Positions 299-38,228 of a stretch of DNA of 64,000 nt are shown here, piece after piece. Positions within the stretch are counted from its first letter, which is position 1. Each line of letters begins with the position of its first letter. The DNA is taken from NCBI RefSeq assembly GCF_053078305.1, contig NZ_CP166879.1; one strand, 5' to 3'. Made by a program: the position numbers and the translations under genes. The notes under the pieces were generated by a model. The model was not told the origin of the DNA, made no database searches, and saw only the letters and a list, made by a program, of their open reading frames with translations.

Positions 299-1540
299 AT
301 GGCTATTGAAAACAAACTCAGTGACAAACTGTTAAAGAGTCTTGTCGGAAAACGGCAGGACAAACAAAAAACAATAGCGGATGGGCGCGGGTTGTCTGTG
401 CGTGTAAGCATGGTTGGGGGGATCAGCTTTGTTTTTTACTATCGTCTTGGTGGCAGGGAATCCCCTCCGGTATGGCTTACACTTGGGCGCTATCCTGATA
501 TGTCTCTTGCAACAGCCAGGCGCATGCGTGATCAGTGCCGTGAGTGGCTGGCTGAAAATCTGGACCCCCGCAGGCAAATAAAACTTGCCGCCGAAAAAAC
601 CATGCAACCAGTGACCGTAAGGGATGCGCTGTTTTACTGGTACGACAATCACGCCACAACAGCCAGAAAAGAGCATGAATATTTAATAAAACGATTTGAA
701 AAGCATATCTTCCCCTATATCGGTGATATGGCTATAGAACAGTGCAAATTACACACATGGCTTGCCGTCTTTGACAGGATCAAAAAAAATGCGCCTGTTA
801 TGTCTGGTGCAATTTTTCTTGATATCAAACAGGCGTTGCGTTTTTGTCGCGTCAGGCAATACATCGCGTGCGATCCCTTTGGCGATATTAACGTAAGTTA
901 TGTCGGGCGCTCATCCGGTATAAGGGATCGCGTTCTTAATATCAATGAAACAGCGGATGTATGGTCTTATGCTTACGGTAATAATTTGCTGACACTGTCA
1001 TCAATACATAACAGAAGAATAATGGTTATCTGCCTGGTGTTTGGTTGCCGTCAGCAGGAGGCGAGGTTATCCACATGGGACGAATGGGATTTAAAAAACT
1101 GGGTATGGACAGTCCCAAAAGAGCACAGCAAAAACAAGGAGGCCATAGTAAGGCCTGTTCCTGACGGCATAAAACAATGGCTCGTTAATCTTTACGCAGA
1201 AACAAAAAATCGCGGTTATGTTGTCGGTTGTGCTTTGCAAAGGGCGACAATAACAGGGGCTGCAAACAGAATATGCAGGCGTCTTGGTCATGATATTAAT
1301 GGCTTGTGGTGCATACATGATTTCAGGCGCACATTTTCCACTGCGCTTAATGATATGGGGGCGGATCCTTATATTGTCGAACTTCTTTTAGGTCATAAAG
1401 TGAAAGGGGTTGCCGGTGTTTACAATAAAAGCAGGCATATAAAGAAAAAACTTGAGGTGCTTAATATGTGGGTTAATTACCTTAATACGATAGCAGGATT
1501 TAACAACAACGTTATCGAGCTTAATAAAGAGGTGGTGTGA
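299..1540 (+). CDS. int: tyrosine-type site-specific integrase (P4-like family)
   Basis: 413 aa; N-terminal arm-binding-like region, C-terminal HDFRRT...LLGH...GVAGVY catalytic motifs; position at element end. Confidence 0.85.
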   Translation: MAIENKLSDKLLKSLVGKRQDKQKTIADGRGLSVRVSMVGGISFVFYYRLGGRESPPVWLTLGRYPDMSLATARRMRDQCREWLAENLDPRRQIKLAAEKTMQPVTVRDALFYWYDNHATTARKEHEYLIKRFEKHIFPYIGDMAIEQCKLHTWLAVFDRIKKNAPVMSGAIFLDIKQALRFCRVRQYIACDPFGDINVSYVGRSSGIRDRVLNINETADVWSYAYGNNLLTLSSIHNRRIMVICLVFGCRQQEARLSTWDEWDLKNWVWTVPKEHSKNKEAIVRPVPDGIKQWLVNLYAETKNRGYVVGCALQRATITGAANRICRRLGHDINGLWCIHDFRRTFSTALNDMGADPYIVELLLGHKVKGVAGVYNKSRHIKKKLEVLNMWVNYLNTIAGFNNNVIELNKEVV

Positions 1541-3700: not shown

Positions 3701-4045
3701 CACCCGCAAGGGCGGGACTCGCACAACCTGAATAAATACATCTGGCGTTTTCTGGCCCGAAAAAACCAGTTGATCGCCAGTGTCGAAAATAGCTATGATT
3801 CCCGCGCACCTCATAAAACGGGTGCCGGGATTGGCGTCCTGGGCAAAACTGAAGCGCATAACACGCGCCCCGCGTGTTTTTTTGTGCCGCATAGTCACAC
3901 CTTATCAATGGTGGGCTGTACGGGGGCGGAGCAATCCGCGCCGGTTTCTTCAGTGTCCGGTTACGCCAACCCTGTACAGTCCGCCACCAGCGAAATTGGC
4001 GTTTCCGGTGGCGGTTATCTTAACCACACTGAGGAGGCTGCCAAC

Positions 4046-30102: not shown

Positions 30103-30351
30103 ATGGCAACAGATAACCGCTCACTGATGATCTGTGCCCATCAGAAGGCATTCAGTCTTGCAACACAGTTACCTCCTGAAACCATAAAAGTGTGTCGTGA
30201 GTTGACTGAACTCTGCATTGCCGGGGAAATCTCCCTGAAACAACTGCATTCGCTGCTGGCAGAGGCTGTCACTGATGAATTGAGCAGCGTGGACGTGATG
30301 ACTGAAGAGCTTGAGTCCCGAATCAGGGGCATTCTGACAGGTAAAGCATGA
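30103..30351 (+). CDS. hypothetical protein, paralog of gp27 C-terminal region
   Basis: AVTDELSSVDVMTEELESRIRGILTGKA parallels gp27 end AVTDELRGVDGMSEQIEFRIRQMLLGKA. Confidence 0.4.
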   Translation: MATDNRSLMICAHQKAFSLATQLPPETIKVCRELTELCIAGEISLKQLHSLLAEAVTDELSSVDVMTEELESRIRGILTGKA

Positions 30352-32015
30352 TGAGCAAAGCCAAAGAAACGTCTCCTTCACTGATGCAAATGACGCCTCC
30401 CCGCAAAATTGATCTGGCCGGTGAAAAAGCCCTGCTGGGCGTGGATGTGCCGGACAGCCTTGATTTACCCGGTGATATGCCGGTGTTTCTGGATTATCAG
30501 GCCCGCTGGTTTGAGGATGAAAGTCAGGTCTGCATCGCGGAAAAATCCCGACGCACCGGGCTGACCTGGGCGGAAGCCGGGCGTAACGTCATTACCGCCG
30601 CAAAGCCTAAGCGTCGTGGTGGCCGTAATGTGTTTTATGTGGGGTCAAAGCAGGAGATGGCGCTGGAATATATTTCTGCCTGCGCCCTGTTCTCCCGTGC
30701 CTTTAACCAGCTGGCAGATGCTGATGTGTATGAGCAGACCTTCTGGGATCGGAATAAAAAAGAAGAAATTCTGACCTACATGATCCGCTTTCCGAACAGT
30801 GGATTCAAAATTCAGGCACTGTCTTCCCGTCCGTCAAACCTGCGCGGCCTTCAGGGGGATGTGGTGATTGATGAAGCCGCGTTCCACGAGTCACTGGATG
30901 AGCTTCTCAAGGCGGCAATGGCGCTCACCATGTGGGGCGCGCGCGTGCGTATTATCTCCACGCATAACGGCGTCGATAATCTGTTTAATCAGTACATTCA
31001 GGAAGCCCGCGAGGGGCGCAAGGATTACAGCGTCCACCGCATAACCCTGGATGATGCCATTGCGGACGGGCTGTACCGTCGTATCTGTTATGTCACCGGC
31101 CGCGAATGGTCACCGGAAAGCGAGCAGAAGTGGCGTGATGATCTCTACAAAAACGCCCCGACCCGTGAGGATGCCGACGAGGAATACGGCTGTATCCCGA
31201 AAAAATCCGGCGGTGCCTATATTCCTCACGCGCTTATTGAAATGGCGATGCTCCGCGACATCCCGATTCTGACGTTTGAAGCCCCGGACGACTTCATCAG
31301 CCGTGCCGCATGGCTGCGTGAATCGGAGGTTTTAACCTGGTGTGAAGAACATTTAAAACCGCTTTTAGAGGCGTTAAATCCCCGTTCCCGCTTCAGCTTC
31401 GGGGAAGACTTTGCCCGCACCGGTGACCTCTCCTGCTTTGTGCTGCTGGAAATCACTGAATCCCTGGCAAAACGCGAGGTGTTTCGCGTGGAGCTGCGCA
31501 ACCTGCCGTATGCCCAGCAGGAGCAGGTGATGATGTACATCCTGACCCGCGTTCCGGCGCTGGTCGGTGCGGCGTTCGACGCCACCGGTAACGGCGGCTA
31601 TCTGGCCGAAGCCGCGCTGCTGGCCTTTGGCCCGGACATCATCGACTGCGTGATGTTATCGCCGAAGTGGTACGGCGAGTGGATGCCAAAACTGAAGGCC
31701 GAGTTTGAGGATCAGAATATCCTCGTCGCCCGCCATCAGACCACGCTTGATGATTTGCGCCATGTGAAGGTGGTGAACGGTATCCCGCAAATCGACAAGG
31801 GGCGTACGAAGGACCAGAACGCAACGGCTGTGAACGCCCGCCGCCATGGCGATTTTGCCGTGGCGCTCTGTATGGCAAACCGGGCGTCGTACATGGAGGG
31901 CTTCATCCTGGATGAATCAGCCTGTCAGGCGCTGCCGGAGCGGTCGCGGGCCATGGAGGGCGGTTATCGTGATGACGATGAGGCATATCATGAATTTGAT
32001 CGGGGGTGCTGGTAG
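30348..32015 (+). CDS. terminase large subunit (Mu gp28-like)
   Basis: 555 aa; ATPase region then nuclease region, position before portal. Confidence 0.8.
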   Translation: MMSKAKETSPSLMQMTPPRKIDLAGEKALLGVDVPDSLDLPGDMPVFLDYQARWFEDESQVCIAEKSRRTGLTWAEAGRNVITAAKPKRRGGRNVFYVGSKQEMALEYISACALFSRAFNQLADADVYEQTFWDRNKKEEILTYMIRFPNSGFKIQALSSRPSNLRGLQGDVVIDEAAFHESLDELLKAAMALTMWGARVRIISTHNGVDNLFNQYIQEAREGRKDYSVHRITLDDAIADGLYRRICYVTGREWSPESEQKWRDDLYKNAPTREDADEEYGCIPKKSGGAYIPHALIEMAMLRDIPILTFEAPDDFISRAAWLRESEVLTWCEEHLKPLLEALNPRSRFSFGEDFARTGDLSCFVLLEITESLAKREVFRVELRNLPYAQQEQVMMYILTRVPALVGAAFDATGNGGYLAEAALLAFGPDIIDCVMLSPKWYGEWMPKLKAEFEDQNILVARHQTTLDDLRHVKVVNGIPQIDKGRTKDQNATAVNARRHGDFAVALCMANRASYMEGFILDESACQALPERSRAMEGGYRDDDEAYHEFDRGCW

Positions 32016-33604
32016 TGGGACGTATAATTGATCTTGACGGAAAACCTTTCTCCTTTGACCCGGAGATGCAGAGTGCCGCGCTGGATATTCCGCAGATTGC
32101 CAGCCGTTATATTGAACATCCGGCCTCGGGTATCACCCCGAACCGGGCGGCGCAGTGCCTTCGCGGGGCTGAACGTGGCGATCTGATTGCCCAGTCCGAT
32201 CTGGCCGCTGACATTGAAGAAAAGGATACCCACCTTTTTGCAGAGCTGGGCAAGCGACGTCTTGCCATTCAGGGGGTGCCATGGAGTATTGAGCCGCCAC
32301 CGAACGCCAGCGCGAATGAGAAAAAGGACGCGGAAATGCTCGACGAATATCTGCATTCCGCCGACTGGTTTGATGCCATGCTGTTTGATGCCACCGATGC
32401 CATCCTGAAGGGCTATTCCTGCATGGAGATTGAGCACGGGATGCTCGGTAAAATGCACATCATCCGCGCCATCCGCTGGCGTGACAGCGGGCATTTCTGC
32501 CTTAACCCGGATGATTTGAGCGAACTGCGGCTGCGTGACGGCAGCCATGCCGGGGTGGCGTTTCAGCCCTTTGGCTGGATAGTGCATCAGTCGCGTTCAC
32601 GCACTGGCTACGGTGGTGCGACGGGGCTTGTCAGAACGCTTATCTGGCCGTTCATTTTCAAAAACTATTCCGTGCGCGATCTGGCTGAATTTCTGGAGGT
32701 GTACGGCCTGCCGATGAAGGTCGGGAAATACCCGTCCGGGGCAACACCGGAGCAGAAAAGCGCCCTGATGCGGGCGGTGATGGATATCGGGCGACGTACA
32801 GGCGGGATCATCCCTGCCGGGATGTCGCTGGAGTTTCAGGCAGCCGCGAACGGTCAGGCCGATCCGTTTGAAACCATGATTTCGTGGGGGGAGCGTTCCA
32901 TCTCCAAAGCTATCCTCGGCGGCACGCTGACCACGGAAGCCGGAGACAAGGGCGCGCGTTCGCTGGGTGAAGTGCATAACGAGGTGCGCCGGGAAATCAG
33001 GGATTCTGATTTACGTCAGCTGGCCGCCACGCTGAACCGCGATCTGGTGTATCCGCTGTATGCCCTGAACACCGCCCACGCCATTGATATCCGTCGCCTG
33101 CCGCGTATCTGTTTCCAGACCAAAGAGCCGGGGGATATCACCAAAATCACCAGTGCGGTGATGCAGCTCAGTACGGGGATGGATATTCCAGATCCCTGGG
33201 TACGGGAGCAGACCGGTATTCCACAGCCAGCCCCCGGTGAAGCCATCTTCCGTGTCCGGCAGAGCAGTAATGAACCCGCGCAGATCAACAGGGAAACACC
33301 GCCGGAAAAACAGGAAAAGACAGAGCAGACGGCGCTGTCAGCCCGAGTGCCGGAAGCGAAAAGCAGCCCCCGTGATGAACTGGACGACATGGGGGATGCG
33401 GTGCCTGCCCGCCGGTTACAGGAGGCCATCGACCCGCTACTGGAGCCGGTCATTGATGCCATCAGAACGCGGGGGCTGGCGGATGCGCTGGCAGACCTGC
33501 CTGCCCTTTACCGTGAAATGGATGATTCCCGCCTGATGACGCTGCTCAGTGATGCCATGTTTGCTGCGGAAATGAAGGGGATGCTGGATGGCTCAGGGGA
33601 TTGA
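32006..33604 (+). CDS. portal protein (Mu gp29-like)
   Basis: 532 aa after TerL. Confidence 0.75.
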   Translation: MLVVGRIIDLDGKPFSFDPEMQSAALDIPQIASRYIEHPASGITPNRAAQCLRGAERGDLIAQSDLAADIEEKDTHLFAELGKRRLAIQGVPWSIEPPPNASANEKKDAEMLDEYLHSADWFDAMLFDATDAILKGYSCMEIEHGMLGKMHIIRAIRWRDSGHFCLNPDDLSELRLRDGSHAGVAFQPFGWIVHQSRSRTGYGGATGLVRTLIWPFIFKNYSVRDLAEFLEVYGLPMKVGKYPSGATPEQKSALMRAVMDIGRRTGGIIPAGMSLEFQAAANGQADPFETMISWGERSISKAILGGTLTTEAGDKGARSLGEVHNEVRREIRDSDLRQLAATLNRDLVYPLYALNTAHAIDIRRLPRICFQTKEPGDITKITSAVMQLSTGMDIPDPWVREQTGIPQPAPGEAIFRVRQSSNEPAQINRETPPEKQEKTEQTALSARVPEAKSSPRDELDDMGDAVPARRLQEAIDPLLEPVIDAIRTRGLADALADLPALYREMDDSRLMTLLSDAMFAAEMKGMLDGSGD

Positions 33605-34913
33605 TTTAGGTTATGCCGCCACGCTTCCCTCAAAAGAGGCGGTGGCATACTTCCGCGCCAAAGGGGCGCATATCAGCTGGAACTGGTTCGAAACAGACGC
33701 GGATGTTCATGCCCGTTCATTCACGGCGGCAAAAGTGGCACGCCTGGACGTACTGACCACACTACAGGCGGAAGTGCAGCGTGCTGTTGATGAGGGGATT
33801 TCACAGAAAGCATTTATCCGCACACTGACACCCCGCCTGCAAAAGCTGGGATGGTGGGGAAAGCAGATTGTGGTGGACAGTGCCGGTAACGCGGAAGAAG
33901 TGCAGCTGGGCAGCCCCCGCCGTCTGGCGCTGATTTACAACGTGAACACCCGCGTGGCTTACAATGCCGGGCGTTACACGCAGATGATGAACAACACGGA
34001 CACGCATCCGTTCTGGCAGTATGTAGCGGTGATGGACAGCCGCACCCGCCCGGCGCATTCCGCCCTTAACGGGCTGGTATTCCGCTATGACGATCCGTTC
34101 TGGAATACACACTACCCACCCAATGGCTGGAACTGCCGCTGCCGTGTCCGGCCATTGTCTCAGGCCCGTCTGGATGCAATGGGGTTATCCGTTTCATCCG
34201 GTCAGGATCATCTTTCCACCCGCAATGTTGAGGCTGGCGTGGATAAGCAGACCGGAGAAGTCAGAGAAATGCCGGTGACCACATATTCAGATGGCACCAG
34301 AACCATGACACCGGATGTGGGCTGGTCATATAACCCCGGTTCGGCGGCGTTCGGCACAGACCAGGCGCTGATCCGCAAGCTGATCGAAGTGAAAAGCCCG
34401 GCGTTACGGGAAATGGTGGTTCAGGAGATGAACAACAGCCCGGAGCGGCAGCTGGCGTTCCGCATCTGGGCAAAAAACATCATGAAAACCCGGCGAGGCG
34501 GTAACGATATCCGCACGCTGGGCTTTATGACCGAAAGTATTGCGCAGGCGGTGGAAAGCCGGACGGGAACGCCACCGGCCCGCCTGCTGGCGATGAGCGG
34601 TAAAAATGTGCTCCATGCGGACAGCGTGAAACATCAGAATGACGGTATCGCCCTGACGCCGGAGGATTTCGCGCAGCTTCCCGCCATGCTGGCTTCCCCC
34701 GATGCCGTGCTGTGGGATCATGTCCATCAGAACCTGCTTTACATCACTGAAACCCGTGACGGAACGGCAAAGATTGCCGTCAATGCGCCTTATGGTGTGA
34801 AGCGCCAGCCGGATAAGCTGGATGTGGTAATTAATGCTTACCGGGTAAATAAATTTGATATTGAAAAAGCAATAGAGGGCGGAAAGCTGGAACTACTGGA
34901 AGGTAAATTGTAA
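33588..34913 (+). CDS. head morphogenesis protein, Mu F-like
   Basis: 441 aa; NGWNCRCRV motif typical of F-like minor head proteins. Confidence 0.7.
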   Translation: MAQGIDLGYAATLPSKEAVAYFRAKGAHISWNWFETDADVHARSFTAAKVARLDVLTTLQAEVQRAVDEGISQKAFIRTLTPRLQKLGWWGKQIVVDSAGNAEEVQLGSPRRLALIYNVNTRVAYNAGRYTQMMNNTDTHPFWQYVAVMDSRTRPAHSALNGLVFRYDDPFWNTHYPPNGWNCRCRVRPLSQARLDAMGLSVSSGQDHLSTRNVEAGVDKQTGEVREMPVTTYSDGTRTMTPDVGWSYNPGSAAFGTDQALIRKLIEVKSPALREMVVQEMNNSPERQLAFRIWAKNIMKTRRGGNDIRTLGFMTESIAQAVESRTGTPPARLLAMSGKNVLHADSVKHQNDGIALTPEDFAQLPAMLASPDAVLWDHVHQNLLYITETRDGTAKIAVNAPYGVKRQPDKLDVVINAYRVNKFDIEKAIEGGKLELLEGKL

Positions 34914-35031
34914 GCCGGTGACGGGGGTCGAACCCGCATAAACATATGACCCCTGAGGGTTTATGCCGCTTTACCAGTTAAGAGTACACCGGCCTGTATT
35001 TATTTTAATCAGATAGTTTTAAGGAGGCAAC

Positions 35032-35505
35032 ATGTCATCCATCGATGCAGCCGTGGTGGTGGACGTTGCGCGTCTCCAGCGGGTCTTTGCCCGGCTTCAG
35101 TTTGTGGGTGGTGGAAAAGACCTGGCCCGCAGTGTGGCGGCGAGTCTTCTGTCATCGTCAGAAATGGCGTTTGAACAGGAAAAAGAGCCGGACGGCGAAC
35201 GCTGGCATGACTGGTCAGATCCTTACCGCAAGTGGCGTACCCGTAAGGGATACATGCCCGGCAAAATCCTGACGCTGAACGGCGATCTGGCCCGACGCCT
35301 GACCACGGATTATGGCGACACCTGGGCGCTGATTGGATCAAATGAGCCTTATGCGGCCATTCATCAGTGGGGTGGCCTGCCCGGTATGCCACCGGGACCG
35401 GCGGCCATTGGTGCACGTCCGTATATGGGCTTTGATCAGGTGGCAGAGCAGGAGATCATGGACGAAATCAGAAAACGCTTTAAAAAGGCCACAGAAACGC
35501 CTTAA
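35032..35505 (+). CDS. virion morphogenesis protein (Mu G-like)
   Basis: 157 aa, position between F and protease. Confidence 0.6.
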   Translation: MSSIDAAVVVDVARLQRVFARLQFVGGGKDLARSVAASLLSSSEMAFEQEKEPDGERWHDWSDPYRKWRTRKGYMPGKILTLNGDLARRLTTDYGDTWALIGSNEPYAAIHQWGGLPGMPPGPAAIGARPYMGFDQVAEQEIMDEIRKRFKKATETP

Positions 35506-36806: not shown

Positions 36807-37753
36807 TGCCTACCCCGATTACACCGGCGATGATCACCGCCCTGATGACGGGCTACCGTTCTGATTTTCAGGCCGGGATGTCCATGGCCCCGTCGCAGTA
36901 CAAAAAAATTGCGATGACCGTGCCCTCCACATCGAAATCCAACACCTACGGCTGGCTGGGGCATGCGCCTCATTTTCGTGAGTGGATTGGTTCTCGTGTG
37001 ATCCAGAAAATGAAAGCGCACGGTTATTCCATTGTAAACAAGACCTGGGAAGATACCGTCCCTGTTAATCGTGATGATTTTGAGGACGATAATCTCGGTA
37101 TTTACTCGCCTTTATTTCAGGAGCTTGGTCGTGCCGCTGCTGTTCAGCCGGATGAGCTTGTATTTGCTGCTCTGCGTGATGGTCTGAAAAGTGCGTGTTA
37201 CGACGGTCAGAACTTCTTTGATACCGAACACCCCGTCTACCCAAATGTGGATGGTACCGGTGATGTGGCGCTGGTCAGCAACATGTTTGTGGCAAAAACC
37301 GGCTCTGTCGGTGCACAGGCAGATTACAGCGGACCGGCCTGGTATCTGCTCGACTGCTCCCGTGCAATAAAACCCATCATCTATCAGAGCCGCCGCAAGG
37401 TTGAACTGGTTGCACAGACAAAAATTGATGAAGGTCGCGCATTCACTGATAACGAGTTTGTGTTCGGTGCATCCGTTCGTCACAACGTGGGCTACGGCTT
37501 CTGGCAGATGGCCTACATGATGCAGTCACCGCTGACGCTGGATGCGCTGTGGCATGGCTGGTCCGCCATGCGTGAGTTTACCGCTGACGGTGGCCGCAAA
37601 CTCGGCATCAAACCCACCCATATTGTTGTCCCCACCTCGCTGGAAAAACAGGCGGTGCAGCTGCTGGAGCGTGAACTGTTCGCAGACGGAAACGCAACCG
37701 TCTCTAACGAGATGAAGGGCAAGCTGGAGCTGGTTGTCGCGGATTATCTGTAA
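36806..37753 (+). CDS. major head subunit (Mu T-like)
   Basis: 315 aa; position and pattern. Confidence 0.75.
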   Translation: MPTPITPAMITALMTGYRSDFQAGMSMAPSQYKKIAMTVPSTSKSNTYGWLGHAPHFREWIGSRVIQKMKAHGYSIVNKTWEDTVPVNRDDFEDDNLGIYSPLFQELGRAAAVQPDELVFAALRDGLKSACYDGQNFFDTEHPVYPNVDGTGDVALVSNMFVAKTGSVGAQADYSGPAWYLLDCSRAIKPIIYQSRRKVELVAQTKIDEGRAFTDNEFVFGASVRHNVGYGFWQMAYMMQSPLTLDALWHGWSAMREFTADGGRKLGIKPTHIVVPTSLEKQAVQLLERELFADGNATVSNEMKGKLELVVADYL

Positions 37754-37796: not shown

Positions 37797-38228
37797 ATGA
37801 ATGAACATCACACTGTGGCAGCAACAGATGATTCAGGTCTTCAGATCAGTGGTGACAATTCTGTCACGGTGCTGGCAGAAGTGCGTTGCAGTCGTTCGGC
37901 GTTTCGTCGTGCGGGGTTCCTGTTCACGCGTGGACGTCAGCAGGTTGAGGTCACCCCGGAGCAGCTTGCCCGACTGGAGGCGGAGCCATGCCTCACTGTG
38001 CGAATACTACAGACGTCTGCTGATGATGCGGGGAGCGTGGCGGGTGTGGTTCATGCAGTGGCCTGTACAGATTTAGCCGAAGCCGAAGCCGAAGCCGAAG
38101 CCGAAGCCGAAGCCGAAGCCGAAGCCGAAGCCGAAGCCGAAGCCGAAGCCGAAGCCGAAGCCGGACAGGATGCTCCCCGGAAAAAGACCGGTAACAAAGC
38201 GAAACAGGCGAAAAAGGCCCGCGCATGA
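37797..38228 (+). CDS. hypothetical protein with (Ala-Glu)14 repeat and basic C-terminus
   Basis: 143 aa; in-frame hexanucleotide repeat. Confidence 0.5.
   Translation: MNEHHTVAATDDSGLQISGDNSVTVLAEVRCSRSAFRRAGFLFTRGRQQVEVTPEQLARLEAEPCLTVRILQTSADDAGSVAGVVHAVACTDLAEAEAEAEAEAEAEAEAEAEAEAEAEAEAGQDAPRKKTGNKAKQAKKARA
38076..38159. repeat. perfect tandem hexanucleotide repeat (GCCGAA)14
   Basis: 14 uninterrupted units plus one imperfect unit, in frame within ORF 37797-38228. Confidence 0.9.

Follow-up and report, generated by a model that had tools for sequence, protein, structure and literature searches.

A conserved tRNA-like RNA gene with exchangeable arm classes opposite the F–G junction of Mu-like prophages

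A tRNA-shaped RNA between two head genes

The DNA stretch studied here (64,000 nt of contig NZ_CP166879.1, RefSeq assembly GCF_053078305.1; hereafter "the window") is 99.9% identical to Escherichia coli O157:H7 strain Z1835 and carries a 39-kb Mu-like prophage of the Sp18 type (approximately 16.6–56 kb of the window) with a Mu-type transposase and an AAA+ ATPase. Between the head genes F and G of this prophage, and on the strand opposite to them, lies a short segment that resembles a tRNA at its ends and departs from one in its middle. What is this element? The initial annotation had offered three readings, namely a degenerate tRNA, an att-like remnant, or a structured RNA element. Our results uphold the third and speak against the first two: the element is very probably a genuine gene for a non-coding RNA (ncRNA) that mimics tRNA. 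The RNA family to which it belongs is conserved and suited to Rfam, and annotation pipelines have already flagged it without interpreting it. Full-text literature searches returned no description of this RNA.

The RNA body comprises 81 nt on the minus strand (34913..34993), including the discriminator base U at 34913. Read from 34993 to 34913, its parts are GCCGGUG-UAC-UCUU-AACUGGUA-AAGC-G-GCAUA-(15 nt)-UAUGU-UUAU-GCGGG-UUCGACC-CCCGU-CACCGGC-U. Three lines of evidence delimit it: the Rfam tRNA model RF00005, a family covariance model built in this analysis (R1), and the label "tRNA-OTHER" given to the same bases by the NCBI Prokaryotic Genome Annotation Pipeline (PGAP) in the 99.9% identical RefSeq record NZ_CP062700 (strain Z1835). 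In a cmscan search of 501 nt, RF00005 aligned end to end (model positions 1–71) with 31.4 bits (E = 1e-4), which is above its gathering score of 29; the match was missing from a whole-window run with the fast filters of Rfam. The sole anomaly in this alignment was a loop of 15 nt in place of 7 nt, the middle arm being scored as a 5-bp stem with a 15-nt loop. ARAGORN, used as tRNA finder, called no tRNA or transfer-messenger RNA (tmRNA) in the window or in related loci, a result that fits with the missing anticodon loop.

The acceptor stem is a perfect 7-bp helix, as had been noticed at the outset, formed by GCCGGUG (34987..34993, minus strand) and CACCGGC (34914..34920, minus strand); in relatives, five of its seven pairs are changed on both sides and 98.6% of the alignment cells are paired. 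The T arm, GCGGG/UUCGACC/CCCGU (34921..34937, minus strand), had also been seen correctly; 98.7% of its cells are paired, with two compensatory pairs (CG to UA; GC to AU/CG). Equally accurate was the remark that no CCA is encoded at the 3′ end of the RNA, where the discriminator U complements the final base of the stop codon of F. The D arm, in contrast, had been declared absent, and it is there: UCUU/AACUGGUA/AAGC (34968..34983, minus strand) carries the GG of the G18–G19 motif in its loop, is part of the cmscan alignment, and covaries, three of its four stem pairs being changed on both sides in relatives. Its connector to the acceptor stem, U8-A9-C (34986–34984), is unusual in having 3 nt where 2 are expected.

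The place of the anticodon arm is taken by a hairpin (34941..34967, minus strand) consisting of GGCAUA/UAUGUU, an internal loop, ACCC/GGGU and the tetraloop UCAG, as indicated by minimum-free-energy folds and by unrelated hairpins at the same place in relatives. The 7-bp middle stem GCAUAAA/UUUAUGC proposed earlier did not survive this comparison, because its 3′ strand is the variable loop (UUAUG/GUAUG) that relatives keep in classes without the 5′ partner; the minimum-free-energy fold picks another stem as well. The stability of the minus-strand fold is by itself unremarkable (z = −1.7 to −2.0), and the claim that the fold is more than chance is therefore based on the covariance-model match and on covariation, not on thermodynamic stability.

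Covariation supports a structured minus-strand RNA

Relatives were gathered with a degenerate sequence pattern and with R1. They came from E. coli genomes, viral contigs, metagenomes, Citrobacter braakii and Edwardsiella anguillarum, the latter two being the only species matched by a looser pattern among species representatives. A search of 5,426 complete E. coli genomes turned up the locus in 229, where it is either unannotated or labelled "tRNA-OTHER". R1 gave 95.3 bits for the window copy, its sole match in the 64-kb window, and detected exactly one copy per phage.

In a MAFFT alignment of 13 variants, made without structural input, 95.5% of the cells in the acceptor, D, lower-arm and T helices were standard pairs and six pairs were changed on both sides; none of 500 shuffles attained these values. 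Among 30 distinct sequences, whose alignment was fitted to the model and hence leans towards the structure, 93.8% of cells were paired, compared with 37–57% in slid controls, and 13 of the 19 scaffold pairs were compensatory. The constraint is strongest on the tRNA top half and core, not on the arm, which points to recognition by tRNA-binding machinery.

These data also bear on the strand. The plus strand could be the functional one, either as a site at the DNA level or, within the late mRNA, as a structured spacer that serves processing or stability; it folds stably (−31.1 kcal/mol, z = −2.6), and the site lies within the late operon and near the genome centre. However, where the minus strand has G-U pairs the plus strand has C-A mismatches; GG in the D loop and GUUCGA in the T loop are tRNA signals that fit the minus strand only; the insert holds no plus-strand terminator; and the units found in a chromosomal island (see below) are not part of any late operon. 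We regard a plus-strand function as very improbable.

A similarly low probability attaches to a decaying tRNA pseudogene or an att-site remnant that has no present function. The aberrant anticodon arm, the lack of an encoded CCA, the negative ARAGORN result and T-loop mutations in some copies would all be explained by decay, but decay would not keep 94–96% pairing, 13 of 19 compensatory pairs and the promoter, nor an RNA that is better conserved than the genes around it: in one phage whose flanking genes are only 69% identical to those of the window, the RNA is 95% identical. Moreover, the element is kept at one site across deep divergence. An att remnant is at odds with a complete cloverleaf, rather than a 3′ half, that shows no identity to a host tRNA, and with its single copy in the window and in each phage. 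Similarity to genuine tRNAs in phage and plasmid collections was confined to generic T-arm matches. The prophage has its Mu-type transposase and AAA+ ATPase and no integrase; Mu-like phages insert by transposition and are not known to integrate at tRNA genes.

A hairpin of exchangeable sequence in place of the anticodon arm

The arms of the relatives are single hairpins of 17–37 nt with loops of 3–18 nt, often a tetraloop of the UUCG, UCCG or GUAA type; the exception is a 61-nt relative (L107) with almost no arm. Among close relatives in Mu-like phages of Enterobacterales we defined three recurring arm classes. Class I, to which the window RNA belongs, has the form GGCAU-A-ACCC-loop-GGGU-CA-AUGUU, in which the tetraloop alone varies (UCAG, UCAA, UCCG, UUCG, UAAC). 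Class II has the form CGGUGCC-hairpin-GAUCAUG with UCCG or UUCG loops, and class III the form GGCA-long hairpin-GGGAUGUU, with stems that are unrelated among its members and loops of 6–18 nt. To judge from this diversity, the arm only has to be a hairpin. Some class II prophage copies in E. coli (L006, L030, L041) have substitutions in the T loop, GGUUCAACC or GGUUCGCCC, the latter of which removes A58, and have lost the "tRNA-OTHER" call of PGAP.

Could the RNA still work in decoding, or as a suppressor tRNA, by means of an enlarged anticodon loop? The RF00005 score in the 501-nt search and a PGAP call of "tRNA-Tyr" on one island unit would be in line with this, yet the anatomy effectively refutes it. 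An acceptor stem and a D/T elbow are present, whereas an anticodon arm of 5 bp and a 7-nt loop with U33 and purine 37 is not: the 15-nt insert folds into a 4-bp helix with a tetraloop that varies freely, the loops of the relatives conserve neither U33 nor purine 37, no member has a canonical anticodon loop, and the "tRNA-Tyr" of the island has a loop of 6 nt. The 3-nt connector is a further departure. Since the anticodon arm is swapped for a plain hairpin of exchangeable sequence and length, the RNA cannot read a codon, and a decoding role is, judging by the make-up of the arms, excluded.

With canonical phage tRNAs (RF00005) the window RNA shares the 7-bp acceptor stem, the D arm with GG and the T arm with GUUCGA, and many of these tRNAs also lack an encoded CCA. 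It differs from them in having no 7-nt anticodon loop, in its exchangeable hairpin arm and 3-nt connector, in the pairing between leader and trailer, and in its position antisense within a late operon under a predicted promoter of its own.

A predicted promoter and an extended terminal helix

A consensus scan identified a sigma-70-like promoter on the minus strand, TTGCCT-17-TAAAAT (35030–35002), with nine of 12 consensus matches. Its −10 hexamer TAAAAT (35002..35007, minus strand) is kept in all close variants while the bases around it differ. The −35 hexamer TTGCCT (35025..35030, minus strand) is the reverse complement of AGGCAA in the ribosome-binding region of G, and the motif TAAGGAGGCAA, which overlaps it, occurs also in L060, a relative without the element. 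From the spacing of the hexamers we infer a transcription start at approximately 34995/34994, that is, 1–2 nt ahead of the acceptor stem.

Leader and trailer of the predicted transcript pair with each other, so that the terminal helix continues for 2 bp beyond the acceptor stem (34912..34995, minus strand), with G(−1, 34994):U(34913) and A(−2, 34995):U(34912). Among 26 distinct variants, the extension measures 2 or 4 bp in every copy at an F–G junction and 0–7 bp in island and other copies, and the predicted start falls on the first of its pairs in several classes. The −1:73 pair covaries (G-C, G-U, U-A or A-U), being G-C in most F–G copies and G-U in the window.

A pair at this position is of interest for another possible function. 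G-1:C73 is the major identity element for histidyl-tRNA synthetase in E. coli, and the RNA might be chargeable, i.e., processed, provided with CCA and aminoacylated, with histidine as one candidate amino acid, and then be used outside translation or perturb a synthetase. The acceptor/T minihelix and the elbow are intact, and −1 pairs with 73 in every F–G copy, mostly as G-C. On the other hand, the pair is G-U in the window itself and U-A or A-U in other members, the CCA is not encoded, and pairing that extends to −2:74 and beyond would bury the 3′ end. Pair 3:70 of the window RNA is C-G instead of G3-U70, and there is no long variable arm. We consider a chargeable molecule improbable.

An accessory cassette exchanged between phage backbones

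Gene F (33588..34913, plus strand) encodes a minor head or head morphogenesis protein of 441 aa with 60% identity to Mu gp30, and its stop codon lies immediately next to the RNA gene, at the 3′ end of the latter. Gene G (35032..35505, plus strand) encodes a virion morphogenesis protein of 157 aa. Comparison with Mu and L060 delimits an inserted cassette (34914..35019), consisting of the RNA gene, its leader and the −10 region, between the stop codon of F and the TAAGGAGGCAA ribosome-binding region of G, which is kept at 35020–35030, right after approximately 107 inserted bases. Mu is without the element because its genes F and G overlap, by 4 nt; in L060, which also lacks it, the stop codon of F lies inside TAAGGAGG of G. 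D108 and SfMu are without the element, too. The overlap in Mu, the junction in L060 and the roughly 107 additional bases identify the element as an accessory insertion (moron).

The same antisense site between F and G is occupied in phages whose F proteins are only 45–47% identical to that of the window, i.e., further off than Mu. Conversely, a prophage of E. coli O91:H21 that is 97.5% identical to the one studied here has a class III arm and an RNA of only 74% identity, within a divergent patch that is limited to 34657–35149. Taken with the 95% identical RNA in the 69% identical flanks mentioned above, this indicates that the cassette, including the arm, moves between phage backbones as a unit and that arm class is uncoupled from the backbone. 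Exchange of the cassette also takes in the last ~20 codons of F. Co-evolution of the arm with the C-terminal tail of F was considered and rejected, as two loci (L014 and L025) have one tail and different arms, which speaks for linkage instead. Differences between the window and the O91:H21 prophage cluster in a few short patches, of which the others lie in head-gene and neighbouring regions, at 30257–30456, 33257–33356, 36950–37549 and 38050–38149.

Anti-CRISPR (clustered regularly interspaced short palindromic repeats) morons of Pseudomonas Mu-like phages sit beside gene G. Like the window cassette, they are small, separately promoted, mosaic insertions exchanged independently of the backbone; in contrast to it, they encode proteins and are co-oriented with the late genes, whereas the window cassette encodes an antisense RNA. 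The cassette may likewise have an anti-defence role. As a separate candidate, we considered mimicry of CRISPR repeats. When 26 arms were aligned locally with the I-E and I-F repeats of E. coli, the best matches were 12/14 and 11/12 (p ~0.003–0.02 before correction for 78 tests; not significant after), and the class I match fell mostly in the conserved scaffold, without the repeat hairpin.

Tandem units in an integrative island and other relatives

Relatives also exist outside Mu-like head genes. An 8.4-kb integrative island in mdtP of E. coli STEC17-183 (L003/L066, NZ_CP075652.1 2238440–2246870) carries tRNA-like units in tandem. The island contains, in this order, genes for an integrase, a helix-turn-helix regulator, Ash, an Icd-like protein, a RepA helicase, a single-stranded DNA-binding protein, PerC and a Mor/C-like activator, followed by iteron-like repeats (six GTGAAA(T)) and two to three tRNA-like units; it also encodes DUF4222. 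The activator is 47% identical to that of the phage. Most of the segment from Mor to the array is held by 13 E. coli genomes, and the number and composition of the units vary between island copies (L071, L072, L082, L090).

The three units of STEC17-183 belong to classes I, III and II. They are 86–90% identical to phage units (unit A reaches 19.8 bits with RF00005), and the spacers between them keep phage trailer sequence, from which it follows that the units were captured from Mu-like phages. A k-mer comparison of the promoter region of the array with the phage was uninformative as to shared motifs. The island may be a satellite of Mu-like phages; to our knowledge, such satellites have not been described. 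Unit C (L003 5778–5859, minus strand) is the one that PGAP annotates as "tRNA-Tyr". It has a 6-nt loop, UGUACA, on a 5-bp stem within a longer arm, and this loop resembles the CUGUA of the tRNA-Tyr anticodon loop. The label is probably a mis-annotation of a tRNA mimic.

Further relatives are more scattered. The 61-nt relative in L107 (1283–1343, minus strand) lies beside tRNA-Glu and a cytosine methylase gene, and the relatives in L097 (2294–2367, plus strand) and L099 lie beside a DUF2971 gene. A metagenome contig of 1116 nt (L088) holds two divergent units (122–194 and 756–830, minus strand), ~630 nt apart, each followed by a reading frame of 15–20 codons (MNNYFTIEHNSAAVM, MTNSFIVEHNSSAV...) that looks like a truncated N terminus of G (compare L104). 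This arrangement may be a degenerate or duplicated F–G junction.

Possible antisense pairing or hairpin display

The fixed position of the element suggests that it could act as an antisense regulator. By pairing with the late mRNA where F meets G, in cis when made by the phage and in trans when made by the island, the RNA would alter the processing or expression of F or G, with the arm classes as specificity types. Several observations would agree with this: the element is always antisense at the F–G junction, also in deeply diverged phages; its promoter overlaps the ribosome-binding region of G; the island units, in all three arm classes, stay close in sequence to those of the phages and keep phage trailer sequence in their spacers; and the end of F is exchanged along with the RNA. 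However, selection acts on tRNA tertiary motifs and pairing and not on complementarity. D and T loops are buried in a tRNA fold, and here the sole exposed loop is often a 4-nt tetraloop, which is poorly suited to initiate a kissing interaction. The RNA ends ~38 nt before the start codon of G, its relatives in the island, L097/L099 and L107 are found outside the F–G context, and Mu manages without the element. No trans target of at least 12 nt was found in the phage itself, and in the cognate prophages a search for trans-antisense targets of the exchangeable arm gave only matches of 9–11 nt, which is the level of chance. An antisense function is unlikely, although it deserves to be kept in view.

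Comparable in some respects are the C4/CI antisense immunity RNAs of P1, P7 and P4 (RF01695). These are likewise small prophage or satellite RNAs with a terminal helix, and the island with its tandem units offers a further parallel in encoding Icd-like proteins. C4/CI RNAs are processed by RNase P. They differ from the window RNA in that C4 works by pairing its exposed loops with a target, whereas the search described above gave none for the RNA studied here. RF01695 itself gave no match at E values up to 10 in 34700–35200, while a positive control elsewhere in the window (3904–3991) scored 77.6 bits.

Alternatively, the tRNA part might serve only processing and stability, as a scaffold that displays a class-specific hairpin to a phage, satellite or host protein in the manner of an aptamer. 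In favour of this, the arm classes, internal loops included, are kept across distant phages, as in the class I RNA that stays 95% identical between 69% identical flanks, and the island possesses one unit of each class. The architecture also mirrors a tRNA scaffold that was reportedly engineered by Ponchon and Dardel to express foreign RNA hairpins. The two are alike in principle, both combining a tRNA body with an arbitrary hairpin for the anticodon arm, and differ in that the scaffold is man-made and the window RNA natural. Yet the class III hairpins are unrelated in sequence, the L107 relative has almost no arm, the C-terminal tail of F does not track the arm (L014 and L025), and no candidate partner can be named. 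Hairpin display appears quite unlikely, somewhat more so than antisense pairing.

A tRNA mimic that may act as a decoy

The combination of a tRNA top half and core under the strongest constraint, an arm that can be any hairpin, and the lack of an antisense target favours a tRNA mimic that engages a tRNA-binding protein. In the explanation we prefer, a self-contained cassette of ~107 bp between the stop codon of F and the ribosome-binding site of G encodes a non-decoding, tRNA-mimicking small RNA opposite the late genes. A constitutive sigma-70 promoter, predicted from sequence, would start the transcript 1–4 nt before the acceptor stem, at the foot of the extended terminal helix, and with such a promoter the lysogen would produce the RNA whether or not the late operon is expressed. 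The tRNA fold would stabilise the RNA and allow contacts with proteins that recognise tRNAs by their elbow and acceptor end. It might then draw off a tRNA-directed factor as a decoy or competitor. The most plausible factor of this kind is an effector that cleaves or modifies tRNAs and belongs to the immunity of the host or of a rival element; the capped arm without an anticodon would make the RNA both uncleavable and useless in translation. As a whole, this explanation is the best available, and we hold it tentatively, at a little less than an even chance. Its weakest step, the decoy mechanism, is in itself doubtful. An example of phages countering tRNA-directed immunity is the use of tRNA gene dosage in the case of Septu and tRNA-Tyr (PMC13096335).

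Several points weigh against this explanation. A decoy would have to face a very abundant pool of competing tRNAs, and no partner protein can be named for it. The discriminator varies (U, C, A) and no CCA is encoded, so that the acceptor end is not obviously tuned to one enzyme. Leader and trailer pair beyond the acceptor stem, unlike in tRNA precursors. A terminator scan at the locus found no terminator downstream of the RNA gene, so that the 3′ end must come from processing; promoter, start site and 3′ end are all predictions. The copies with mutated T loops (GGUUCAA, GGUUCGC) may be decaying within fixed prophages. Finally, the near-exclusive association with the F–G junction is unexpected for a general anti-defence RNA and suggests a function specific to Mu-like phages, and it is this fidelity that keeps the antisense and hairpin-display alternatives alive.

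Non-decoding mimics of tRNA are known from other systems. The viral tRNAs (vtRNAs) and tRNA-microRNA-encoded RNAs (TMERs) of murine gammaherpesvirus 68 (MHV68), the MALAT1-associated small cytoplasmic RNA (mascRNA) and the stable RNAs C and D from the tRNA cluster of T4 are tRNA-shaped RNAs that are not used in translation and obtain their processing and stability from tRNA enzymes. All are virus- or host-encoded non-decoding mimics made as separate small RNAs, and the window RNA belongs with them by its covariation-supported fold, its absent anticodon loop and its predicted promoter. The vtRNAs, TMERs and mascRNA are eukaryotic, and the T4 RNAs come from another phage lineage, unlike the window RNA. 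We know of none among them with cassette-like arm classes or a fixed antisense site between head genes; the window RNA is set apart from other mimics by its arm classes, its fixed antisense position in the late operon and its capture in tandem by the island. The tRNA-like domain of tmRNA is comparable in having a tRNA top half in which other RNA replaces the anticodon arm. The window RNA differs from it in its length of 81 nt, its complete D arm and the absence of a tag reading frame and of G3-U70. As a candidate identity, tmRNA was rejected because the ARAGORN tmRNA search was negative, pair 3:70 is C-G and there is no reading frame.

Beyond the single locus, one may speculate that the cassettes form a hitherto unrecognised class of RNA effectors in conflicts among Mu-like phages, the satellite-like island that exploits them and host immunity. 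The tRNA-shaped body would hijack the tRNA handling of the host, the exchangeable arm would set specificity, and the island would hold a master set, one unit of each class, with which any helper type could be countered or exploited; we consider this scenario unlikely as it stands. If the RNA were truly a decoy or a specificity determinant between helper and satellite, it would represent a new type of RNA-based weapon in the conflict between phage and host, and the 8.4-kb island with its Mor-like gene hints at satellites of Mu-like phages. Irrespective of function, a well-supported RNA family is added to a model group of phages, the transposable Mu-like prophages being common in pathogenic E. 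coli, together with a natural example of a tRNA scaffold with an inserted hairpin, and the annotation of the "tRNA-OTHER" loci and of the "tRNA-Tyr" in one island unit can be corrected.

Other features of the window

The Mu-like prophage (~16600–56000) is nested in another prophage: in the RefSeq record with 99.9% identity, the parts of a split head closure/completion gene lie on either side of it, and the flanking DNA holds a second set of tail and head genes. Far from the F–G junction, the window contains an isrK RNA (3806–3882, plus strand; 66 bits) and, directly downstream, the C4 antisense RNA (3904–3991, plus strand) that provided the positive control above. This pair looks like an antisense RNA module of the immunity type that belongs to a different prophage or satellite.

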